Of a stretch of DNA of 15,711 bases, positions 12,001 to 15,000 are shown in pieces (position 1 is the first letter of the stretch; the number at the start of each line of letters is the position of its first letter). This DNA comes from a virus. Its lineage: Duplodnaviria > Heunggongvirae > Uroviricota > Caudoviricetes. Position numbers: made by a program. The stretch lies in IMG/VR virus record IMGVR_UViG_2700989509_000007, one strand, 5' to 3'.

Positions 12001-15000
12001 CCTGCGCCTCCTCATTGCCAGCCATTAATTGCCAGTCACGCTGATAACGCTCGATGAGTTTTTTCTTGTCAGTTTCTGTTGACGCATAATCGCTGAAGTC
12101 TTTCAGGATTTGTTCGCAGTCAACCGATGGAGATTTCTGGTTGGTATTTTCTGGTGATGGTTTGTTATCTGATGCTGGGATTGCCCATCCCGGCAGCGAT
12201 GGAGGAAGCCAGTAAAATCCTGTTCCATCCTTCAGTTTTGCCCTGTGCCACCCCTGCTTTTTATCGAGAGATGTTTGTGCGAAACCTTCCTCAAGGTTAT
12301 ACAGATACCGACCGATTCCCCACTGAACGGCAGCACGCTTCATTGCACCGGAACGACCACCTTTTACGGCTTCTACCTGCGTGTTTTCAGCAGCATCCCA
12401 TTTGGTTACCCATTCGGAATCAATCCTGATTGATATGCCGCATTCAACGCCTCCGTTGTTGGGAATATCGCGGTATTCATTGCGCCATCCTGCTTTGCCG
12501 CAAACATCGTCCAGGCGTTTCATGATTGCCCTGTTCGTGACATAAGCCAGCACCATAGCCCACACCTTGCCATCGCGTGTTTTACCGCTTTGCTGTATTC
12601 GCCATTCGATATCTTCAGGGCAGAATGGCTCATCGAATTTGTTCAAATCCATAATTCACCTCAGAATGGACACGGCCCAAGGAAATAACGCTGATTTAAT
12701 ACTTCAGTCTTTGCCGCATTTAAAAATACGCGAACACCTTCACGATCTCCCTTCTGGCGATACATTAACGCCTGCTGCGTGTACATGCGTCTCTGTAACT
12801 TGCTCTCCTTCACTGTGGTTGCAAGTGACATGAATATCTCCTTCGTTACCGATTAAATCTTTCATCTGACGAATGAATTCTTCGTCTGACCAGTTATCTG
12901 TAAAACTCATTTCCTGCGATACCACGGAAGGTTGATAGCTGATTTCATCGCTTTATTTGCTTCAAGCCACATTTTGGAATCACCAATAAATCGGGCTATT
13001 ACTGCTTTGTTCTGTGCAGCACGAAGCATCTGGTGATTAATGGCTATTTCATTGCGCATAACGCCTCCAGTTGTTTCTTTGCTGCTCTGATTAATTGTTT
13101 AACTCGGCGTGATAATTCAGATTCGTGCGGGTAGAAAGCGGACATGACGCCGCTACCCGCGAGCTGAAAGTGCATCATGGGTAACTCCTTATATTTGATT
13201 GCATAACGAAAACGCCTCGAGTGAAGCGTTATTGGTATGCGGTAAAGCCGCGCTTAGGCGGCTGATGTTTCTTCTTTCAGGCTTTCGAGATATTTACGTG
13301 GGTCGTCGTAACATTGGCATTCGCTGTACCAATCCACCCAGCGATCAGTAAGCCCCATCTCTGATAAATCTTCATCGGTAAGGCTCTCATCCCACATCTC
13401 AAGGCCGTTAGCATTGCAGTAATCAGGCTTGATGTTGTTGTCATACTGAAAGGCGTCATAATCAGCCAGTGCGTCCATCAGACGAACACCCTCTTCAACA
13501 CTTGCCACTTCTACAATGAACGGCTTCATAGGTACTTGCGGGATATGCCAGACACGTAATTTCATATATCCTCCGTCAAAAAAATTGCCCTCACACTGGA
13601 GGGCAAAGAAGATTTCCAATAATCAGAACAAGTCGGCTCCTGTTTAGTTACGAGCGACATTGCTCCGTGTATTCACTCGTTGGAATGAATACACAGTGCT
13701 TATTCGTACTAATAAAATACCCAATTTTCTGTTTCTTGGTTGTGTCCAAAGTTATATTCAATATCTGGTGTTGATGTATCAATATTCTTCATACCATCAA
13801 CAAGAGTTGATACAACAGCCAAATCTTGTTTGATTCTCATTAAATGGTATTTCTTCCGGCGCAATAAACTTTCAATGGCAAGTTTCTTCGTTGGGAATGC
13901 AAAAGATCTTTCTGCATTTTTTGCTACTTTCTTAATTGCATATCTATTTCTCCTTTGTTTCCATTCCTGTAACCACTGATTTGGTGCTGGTTTAAAATTA
14001 ACAATCCAATGCGCAGGAACCAACCATGCATAATGCTCTGTCTGATGAAAAGCTATATATTGAAGTGCGAATATTTTTATCCCATCTTCTTCAACTGTCG
14101 CCTGGAATCTCCAGAAAACAGGCATTCCATCATGTTCAGTTTCTGATTCAGGAAAAGGTACGCTCCATGATTTTGTCATATCTCACCTCAAATAAGTGGT
14201 TTGCTGCCTAATTTCATTTTCTGGCGACCGACACAGGTCACACCCATTTCACTGCGTGGCTTGCTGTAGTAAATACGGTTCTGTTTACGCTCGACTTCTT
14301 CTGCCTTCTTGCAGCGAAGGCTTCCGAGTGATATTGCTTTTTCAGAAAGGCTTAAACGCTTTCTTGGGGCCTCCTGAACAGGTTCCTCACTGTCTGTGCC
14401 GAAGATAGAATCAATGATGTTACAGATAGCATCACGCTCAATAGCAAGCTTTCTGCGCCGCTCATGACGGCGAGTTTTGGCATTTCCTGCAAATGTTGAT
14501 TTTCCGTACACGATTACCGTCATGATGTTTTCCTCATGTGAAATGGCTTTGGTGGTGATGCGCCAGATGCTGATCTTCTGGTTGCTGTCGTTGCAGCTGC
14601 AATTCACATCACCGCCAAACCCATCTCGTTTGGTATCTGTTTGCGCTTTGTCAGCGCCCCATCGAAGTTAAAGAGCCTGCCAATCTGTTCCGTTTGACTT
14701 CCAGCTTCCTGCTGATGGCTTAAAGATAACCTAGGTTATAGGTGTGGTCAATAACTTAATTTATAATTCATGGTAAATAAGTTATAAGTTATGGATAACA
14801 AAGGTATTTTATTTTTGTAAATGTTGAGGATGAAGGTAAGCGTACAGCGAGGGCCGTATTGACGGGGATGTGTTATTCAGCTGGCAGTGCTATGCGCCAC
14901 GGAAGCAGTTCGCTGACCCGGTTGACCGGCCAGTCTGCTATGACGCCAAGCACATGGCGAAGGTAGCTTTCTGGATCCACGTCATTCAGTTTGCACGTCC

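Follow-up and report, generated by a model that had tools for sequence, protein, structure and literature searches.

Four small coupled genes in the early-left region of an Escherichia coli lambdoid prophage and the frame-specific constraint on a 92-nt overlap

Gene content of the early-left block

The stretch of DNA analyzed here (the window, 15,711 nt; IMG/VR virus record IMGVR_UViG_2700989509_000007, Caudoviricetes) contains, within Escherichia coli chromosome, the left arm of a lambdoid prophage, whose integrase open reading frame (ORF) is at 4496-5740. This study deals with four small genes on its minus strand, namely cIII, kil, and two ORFs designated ORF3 and ORF4, and in particular with the 92 nt over which ORF3 and ORF4 overlap in different frames. 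An earlier note on this DNA had described the four ORFs as tightly coupled and as missing from, or misplaced in, its ORF track. Every one of its coordinates was confirmed by reading the minus strand of region 12400-13500 and listing all ORFs of at least 25 amino acids (aa). The block was absent from that track because of a 60-aa cutoff, and the misplaced entry was traced to the ORF lister, which begins ORF3 at the in-frame GTG at 12925 (61 aa). The four ORFs lie far beyond chance expectation.

The block corresponds to the promoter-proximal section of the recombination region in the early-left (pL) operon, the prophage being a lambdoid one of the HK022/mEpX2 type from E. coli. It measures 661 nt, is present in part or whole in 2089 of 5426 complete E. 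coli genomes, and shares 97.7-98.6% identity at the DNA level with the phages mEpX2, mEp235, H-19B, HK446, and HK022. Since the block is already annotated in HK022, mEpX2, and Sf6, the arrangement has to be regarded as known; its annotation in HK022, HK97, and Sf6 dates back over two decades. PGAP annotation of RefSeq genomes always includes ORF4 and sometimes omits ORF3.

A gp17-type superinfection-exclusion gene (PF17420) is located upstream of cIII, and a consensus scan detected a tL2-type terminator-like hairpin between the two, at 13211-13230 on the minus strand (AACGCTTCACTCGAGGCGTT, then a T-run). The records of Sf6 and HK620 show tL2 terminators at the position equivalent to this hairpin, and the candidate terminator is taken as the upstream limit of the four-gene block. 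From the gp17-like gene towards the presumed pL end, the minus strand of the window also contains ORFs of 156 aa (13709-14179) and 139 aa (14188-14607).

cIII (13044-13178, minus strand; 44 aa) is preceded by the Shine-Dalgarno (SD) sequence AAGGAG at 13190-13185, which is located 6 nt from the ATG. Residues 2-38 of the product matched the whole model of Pfam PF08134 (model positions 1-37 of 37; E 2e-30; 104.7 bits at a cutoff of 25), a match to phrog_550 was also obtained, and RefSeq names the same ORF 'protease FtsH-inhibitory lysogeny factor CIII'. The gene follows the terminator-like hairpin and overlaps kil, a layout shared with HK022, H-19B, Sf6, and P22. Family membership suggests an HK022-type lysogeny factor inhibiting FtsH. 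The start of kil (12907-13059, minus strand; 50 aa) lies 16 nt within cIII, its SD GGAGG at 13068-13064 being located 4 nt from the ATG. The peptide matched the full model (1-31) of PF06301 (Lambda_Kil; E 1.7e-20; 72.6 bits at a cutoff of 27.6) as well as phrog_2055 (E 1e-35), and by family assignment kil is predicted to encode an inhibitor peptide of host cell division (FtsZ-ring). Based on these two Pfam families, the CIII-like and Kil-like calls of the earlier note were correct. In phage lambda, CIII and Kil occur in the same pL order and have the same functions by family assignment, whereas the window cIII belongs to PF08134 (HK022/P22 type) and scored below the cutoff against PF02061 (Lambda_CIII; E 0.17). 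Lambda is not known to contain ORF3 or ORF4; its kil is followed by gam, bet, and exo.

ORF3 (12740-12910, minus strand; 56 aa from its ATG) is the counterpart of HK022 gp42.1, Sf6 gp30, and mEpX2_036, and its start is shared with the stop of kil (ATGA). ORF4 (12661-12831, minus strand; 56 aa) corresponds to HK022 gp42, Sf6 gp29, and mEpX2_035. Its SD AAGGAG (12838-12843, minus strand) lies inside ORF3 codons 23-25, 6 nt from the ORF4 ATG. The overlap comprises 12740-12831 on the same strand, the ORF4 frame being +1 relative to ORF3. Eight nucleotides past the end of ORF4 begins the ATG (12652) of a gene for a single-strand annealing protein of the Rad52/Rad22 family (11945-12652, minus strand; PF04098, E 1.8e-25), whose SD GAGGTG overlaps the ORF4 stop; a phage SSB gene (11438-11944, minus strand; PF00436, E 1.6e-36) adjoins it. 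The claimed tight coupling was therefore borne out at all four places, namely the 16-nt overlap, the ATGA junction, the internal SD, and the 8-nt gap to the recombinase gene. The earlier view of ORF3 and ORF4 as genuine genes agrees with the curators of HK022, Sf6, and mEpX2, who had already annotated the overlapping pair.

The genes cIII, kil, 42.1, and 42 of HK022 (AF069308) and their counterparts in mEpX2, mEp235, H-19B, and HK446 have the same ORF lengths, 92-nt overlap, SDs, and ATGA junction; the window differs from them by a few point substitutions, such as E18D in ORF3. Downstream of the block, HK022 encodes an Erf recombinase, whereas the Rad52-like and SSB genes of the window are also found in mEpX2 and Sf6. 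The Sf6 genes 32, 31, 30, 29, and 28 follow the same order in the same frames (cIII, kil, gp30 = ORF3, gp29 = ORF4, and the Rad52-like gp28). However, the Sf6 homologue of ORF4 carries a mosaic patch at residues 20-42 (protein identity 82%), and that of ORF3 stops 12 nt earlier, resulting in 52 aa and an 80-nt overlap.

The Arf-like peptide and the gp42/HkaM family

Residues 1-52 of ORF3 matched the entire model phrog_2123 (positions 1-52 of 52; E 6.3e-40), and the peptide is 98% identical to HK022 gp42.1. The match to the P22 Arf family (phrog_2445) was weak (E 0.013) and confined to residues 5-26. The N-terminal motif reads WSDEEFI in ORF3 and FSDEEFI in P22 Arf, and the consensus [FW]SDE[EQ]F[IV] is common to ORF3, P22 Arf, and a homologue from Buttiauxella. 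ORF3 codons 1-20 (12851-12910, minus strand; MSFTDNWSDEEFIRQMKDLI) represent this Arf-like conserved core. In an ORF3 homologue from Salmonella enterica serovar Chester (protein P0036), the Arf-like motif is tandemly triplicated (EEFIRQMK-EFIRQMK-EFIRQMK).

ORF3 also occupies the place of an Arf-type gene, being a small, stop-start coupled ORF between kil and the region of the strand-annealing protein gene. P22 Arf (47 aa) is, like ORF3, a small acidic peptide encoded at the same position, between kil and the strand-annealing gene, with stop-start coupling on both sides; it differs from ORF3 in its unrelated tail, in the absence of an ORF4 homologue from P22, and in the short arf/erf overlap of 4 nt. 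As stated in PMC12315714, P22 Arf helps in recombination and is not essential for it, and its molecular function is not known; the genetic evidence for the recombination role is attributed there to Poteete et al. 1991. By analogy of motif and position, the biochemical role of ORF3 may be Arf-like. Searches of ORF3 and ORF4 against the PADLOC defence models gave no match, and an NCBIfam search returned nothing significant.

A properly spaced SD is missing in ORF3, where AGGAA abuts the ATG, so that the gene probably depends on the ATGA coupling to kil. Whatever the upstream gene, the ORF3 start is coupled to it through ATGA or GTGA, and the same start is a site of mosaic joints. The AlphaFold2 model of ORF3 consists of one helix (residues 9-20) and a low-confidence coil tail (pLDDT 44-62), suggesting that the tail is probably disordered.

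ORF4 matched phrog_1723 over its full length (E 4.5e-34) and is 100% identical to HK022 gp42. In total, 142 homologues of 56-62 aa, lacking a Pfam domain or an informative name, were obtained by profile search from the Enterobacterales genera Escherichia, Salmonella, Citrobacter, Enterobacter, Kluyvera, Yersinia, Serratia, Pantoea, Erwinia, and Buttiauxella. An exhaustive search of 1.84 billion representatives with a hidden Markov model (HMM) recovered only 32 clusters at 50% identity, indicating a narrow family. Invariant columns in an alignment of 64 sequences comprise R14, A21, R25, N46, and a C-terminal ...FLG..PF. HkaM of phage HK620 and SPN9CC_0013 are distant members (hmmsearch E ~1e-13), likewise encoded just upstream of a strand-annealing gene, and differ from ORF4 in length (62 aa) and N-terminus (MIPVELAKTPELS...). 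In BLASTP the SPN9CC ORF gave no match to ORF4, and a family HMM was required to see the relation. The Arf-like ORF of SPN9CC overlaps its ORF4 homologue in the same phase as in the window, whereas HK620 has no Arf-like ORF and its hkaM is directly coupled to kil.

Regardless of the upstream context, every ORF4 homologue has its own SD 5-9 nt upstream, and many of them lack an Arf-like ORF in front. ORF4 was intact in all 150 loci containing both ORFs. The distance to the next gene was 7-16 nt in all loci examined, the SD of the next gene overlapping the ORF4 stop. That next gene encodes an ERF, a Rad52-like, or an AAA_24/Sak4-like strand-annealing protein, or it is an HNH insert followed by ERF. 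One exception was noticed in Logan contig L220, where the ORF4 homologue is followed by unrelated genes; this contig probably represents the end of a prophage or is chimeric. AlphaFold2 predicted a helical hairpin for ORF4 (pLDDT 93; helices 7-27 and 30-49), the first helix being encoded by the overlap. Fold searches with this model against PDB and BFVD retrieved generic helical hairpins only (all E > 0.3), and a sequence profile search of PDB gave no match. The invariable linkage to recombinase genes suggests that ORF4 is a leader protein of the recombination module.

Several features of the adjacent module were also recorded. The Rad52_Rad22, ERF, and AAA_24/Sak4-like proteins encoded after ORF4 homologues share a similar C-terminal domain of ~60 residues ending in ...EL...AA, with L, F, A, L, W, G, R, and AA invariant in an alignment of the window protein (11945-12652) with those of loci L003, L013, L014, and L190. 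This shared domain may represent a common partner-binding module. HNH homing-endonuclease genes are repeatedly inserted, always at gene junctions (L203, 1679-2149; L215-L218); the sites are the ORF4/erf junction in L203 and L218 and the erf/ssb junction in L215-L217. The near-identical prophage of E. coli O103 ML775 (L004, 2109-2688) contains a truncated Rad52-like gene with a DNA polymerase III theta pseudogene behind it; cIII, kil, and ORF4 are intact there, and the prophage decay lies downstream of the block.

Frame-specific constraint and length of the overlap

Approximately 200 loci were collected for the analysis of selection, 150 of which contain an Arf-like ORF3 together with ORF4 and yielded 100 unique 250-nt cores. 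The first scan of viral contigs had provided 80 loci, all with a 100% identical ORF4 protein, and diverged queries were added. Within the overlap, the variable sites were distributed as 4/1/13 over the three codon positions of ORF4 (Fisher p 1e-4). Read in the ORF3 frame, the same sites were distributed as 13/4/1, making the wobble position of ORF3 the least variable one (1/26). Among 22 site-by-allele changes in the overlap, 15 were silent in ORF4 and replacing in ORF3, six were replacing in both, and a single one showed the reverse pattern. In total, 22 protein variants of the ORF3 tail were counted over the overlap, compared to three variants of ORF4 residues 1-26. Outside the overlap, the ORF4-only part showed 7/6/16 variable sites per codon position (chi-square p 0.04), the ORF3-only part 4/7/13 in its own frame (chi-square p 0.07), and kil, used as a control with 66 unique sequences, 6/8/21 (chi-square p 0.003). 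Two loci carry a shortened ORF3: a naturally occurring stop, silent in the ORF4 frame, cuts it to 36 aa in L062, and in L114 it is reduced to 7 aa.

A comparison with the diverged Pseudocitrobacter locus (L013) gave the same picture. For ORF4 codons 1-28, 8 were identical, 13 synonymous, and 7 replaced, whereas the same DNA in the ORF3 frame contained 7 identical, 1 synonymous, and 20 replaced codons. Codons 1-20 of ORF3 comprised 5 identical, 7 synonymous, and 8 replaced ones, and the N-terminal core of ORF3 thus appears to be under purifying selection. The codon-position bias and the L013 comparison indicate, at the level of sequence variation, that ORF4 is fully constrained and the ORF3 core constrained, whereas the 30-residue tail of ORF3 is unconstrained. 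Purifying selection in the overlap was found for the ORF4 frame only and not for both frames; consequently, the previous suggestion that two genuine frames are encoded over ~90 nt was not upheld.

The length of the overlap depends on what follows the Arf-like gene, whose 3' end varies with the next module. The overlap with the next gene amounts to 4 nt in P22 (erf) and in Buttiauxella L218, in which a 36-aa Arf-like gene (MSQQAPSKQWSDEQFVRLMKDM...) ends at the start of the HkaM-type ORF4. It extends to 20 nt in HK140, 80 nt in the Sf6 type, 86 nt in Pseudocitrobacter L013, 92 nt in the window, and 95 nt in SPN9CC. In ORF4 homologues without an Arf-like neighbour, the -1 frame is likewise open, up to end points ranging from +14 to +137 nt. 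When the ORF4 protein was kept fixed and its codons were resampled synonymously, this frame remained open for at least 80 nt in 39-79% of the trials. Because the 3' ends vary and the -1 frame is often open by chance, the overlap needs no selective explanation, and its description as unusual in the earlier note did not hold. It fits the picture of lambdoid mosaic joints, with joints at the ORF3 start and near the boundary between ORF3 and the next gene.

A weak terminator-like hairpin with a T-run (12729-12744, minus strand), located at the ORF3 stop inside ORF4, was rejected as a conserved element because it is absent from the Sf6-type sequence. In the HK620 record, 'tL2D' is annotated about as far into hkaM.

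A single continuous gene in place of the two overlapping frames had been named beforehand as an observation that would speak against two genes. Such a homologue exists in the HK97 record only, where one 83-aa ORF (Gp42.1) spans both frames at the locus that corresponds to the window; the Gp42.1/Gp42 region of HK97 is peculiar in this respect. In the alignment, HK97 equals the Sf6-type sequence (98% identity) plus two single-base insertions placed 7 columns apart, its relatives at 98% identity all measuring 250 nt compared to 252 in HK97. The insertions lie at 1958-1966 of the HK97 locus (L002), i.e., ~24907-24915 of record AF069529, and occur in none of the other phage and viral collection sequences; a diagnostic 22-mer was found in the HK97 genome only within the viral collection. 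The fusion replaces ORF4 residues 1-17, including the nearly invariant S10 and the invariant R14. In the protein database, 82-aa fusions are rare and have many different junctions with 1-4 members each, whereas members of the separate 56-aa and 52-aa forms number in the tens to hundreds. With the HK97 fusion explained by a pair of private 1-nt insertions, the two-gene reading stands. The continuous ORF was also rejected as the ancestral state, in view of these insertions and the loss of invariant ORF4 residues. On sequence evidence, the continuous form is regarded as a private mutation, sequencing error, or indel noise, an error in the HK97 reference sequence being possible.

Proposed expression of the block and alternative explanations

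The observations are probably best explained by four coupled small genes on the pL message, with the ORF3 tail being incidental and the overlap not dual coding. According to this explanation, a single N-antiterminated polycistronic mRNA would presumably originate from pL. Translation of cIII would start from its own strong SD, and its product would inhibit FtsH and thereby stabilise CII; kil would be translated from the SD within the 3' end of cIII, blocking FtsZ-ring formation. ORF3 would be reached by termination-reinitiation at the kil ATGA, its functional part presumably being the N-terminal helix of ~20 residues with WSDEEFI. ORF4 would initiate independently from the AAGGAG within ORF3, and its helical hairpin would head the recombination module. 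Ribosomes translating ORF3 would continue past the ORF4 start, in the -1 frame relative to ORF4, to the first chance stop; they would read on into ORF4 because no stop codon closes the Arf-like ORF ahead of the ORF4 module. The read-on would add an unconstrained, probably disordered tail to ORF3. Transcription from pL and the coupling mechanisms are inferred; the gene identities, their conservation, the selection pattern of the two frames, and the variable 3' ends were observed.

Several points weigh against this explanation. Most of the 100 unique sequences originate from closely related E. coli prophages, so that the polymorphism counts lack phylogenetic independence. Within E. coli, the ORF3 N-terminus shows only moderate selection, 20 protein variants having been counted there, and the structure model of ORF3 was built on a shallow alignment. 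Literature searches (gp42.1, hkaM, Arf, ribosome profiling) yielded no direct expression data for ORF3 or ORF4. Moreover, four diverged pairs (the window type, the Sf6 type, Pseudocitrobacter, and SPN9CC) share a long overlap in an identical +1 phase, and this recurrence might point to some advantage, such as an adjustment of the ORF3:ORF4 ratio.

The recurrence, at the similar length of 80-95 nt, is also the principal argument for true dual coding, in which both ORF3 and ORF4 would provide a functional, selected protein over the 92 nt, and phage curators indeed annotate both ORFs. This possibility is considered improbable, because the changes in the overlap spare ORF4 and replace ORF3 residues (15 of 22, with one reverse; 22 tail variants compared to three in ORF4), the ORF3 frame retains one synonymous codon next to 20 replaced ones in Pseudocitrobacter, and natural variants dispense with the tail (the stop in L062, the 7-aa ORF3 of L114). 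In addition, the Arf-like genes of Buttiauxella, P22, and HK140 have no long tail, and an overlap this long is within chance expectation. Little credence is likewise given to the opposite proposal that ORF3 is a chance open frame and that only cIII, kil, and ORF4 are expressed. The omission by PGAP from some RefSeq genomes, the poorly placed SD, the 20 N-terminal variants, the two truncations among E. coli prophages, and the marginal codon-position bias (4/7/13, p 0.07) are in line with it. However, the N-terminal motif is kept in Pseudocitrobacter, Salmonella SPN9CC, Buttiauxella, and P22, with many synonymous changes, the start is always stop-start coupled and coincides with mosaic joints, and genetic data cited in PMC12315714 support a function for P22 Arf, which is encoded at the same position.

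A programmed +1 frameshift from ORF3 into ORF4 would generate an Arf-gp42 fusion of ~82 aa, for which the continuous HK97 Gp42.1, the rare 82-aa database proteins, and SD-like AAGGAG motifs inside the overlap could be put forward. It is hardly credible: the HK97 fusion consists of two private insertions with loss of S10 and R14, and the database junctions are scattered in a manner resembling indel noise. Inspection of the ORF3/ORF4 overlap revealed no slippery heptamer or CUU-UGA-type site, and it has no nucleotide sequence in common with the SPN9CC overlap. RNA folding of the kil-ORF3-ORF4 junction was no more stable than that of shuffled sequences (z -1.25), giving no sign of a structured element for coupling or frameshifting. 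An Rfam scan of 11000-15711 (E <= 1) returned two sub-threshold chance hits, neither of them relevant, and no element in the block. Frameshifting is thus unlikely for want of a slippery site, an Rfam element, or significant RNA structure; furthermore, the SD and ATG of ORF4 are always kept, and no programmed frameshift was recognized.

With the four-gene explanation, the overlap is a by-product of mosaic module joining, all constraint lying in one frame, and serves as a worked example that a long out-of-frame overlap of two real genes need not mean dual coding. The block bears chiefly on annotation quality: four real genes of a prophage block that is very common in E. coli escape an ORF track cut at 60 aa, and some genomes annotated by automatic pipelines still lack ORF3. 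Tentatively, and with considerable doubt, ORF4 may be proposed as an accessory factor of lambdoid recombination modules, acting with Rad52-like, Erf, or Sak4-like annealing proteins alike. If this proposal is true, the shared partner could be an SSB (of the host or of the phage), RecBCD, or the common C-terminal domain of ~60 aa, and the proportion of the two peptides might be set by ribosomes that translate ORF3 through the ribosome-binding site of ORF4.

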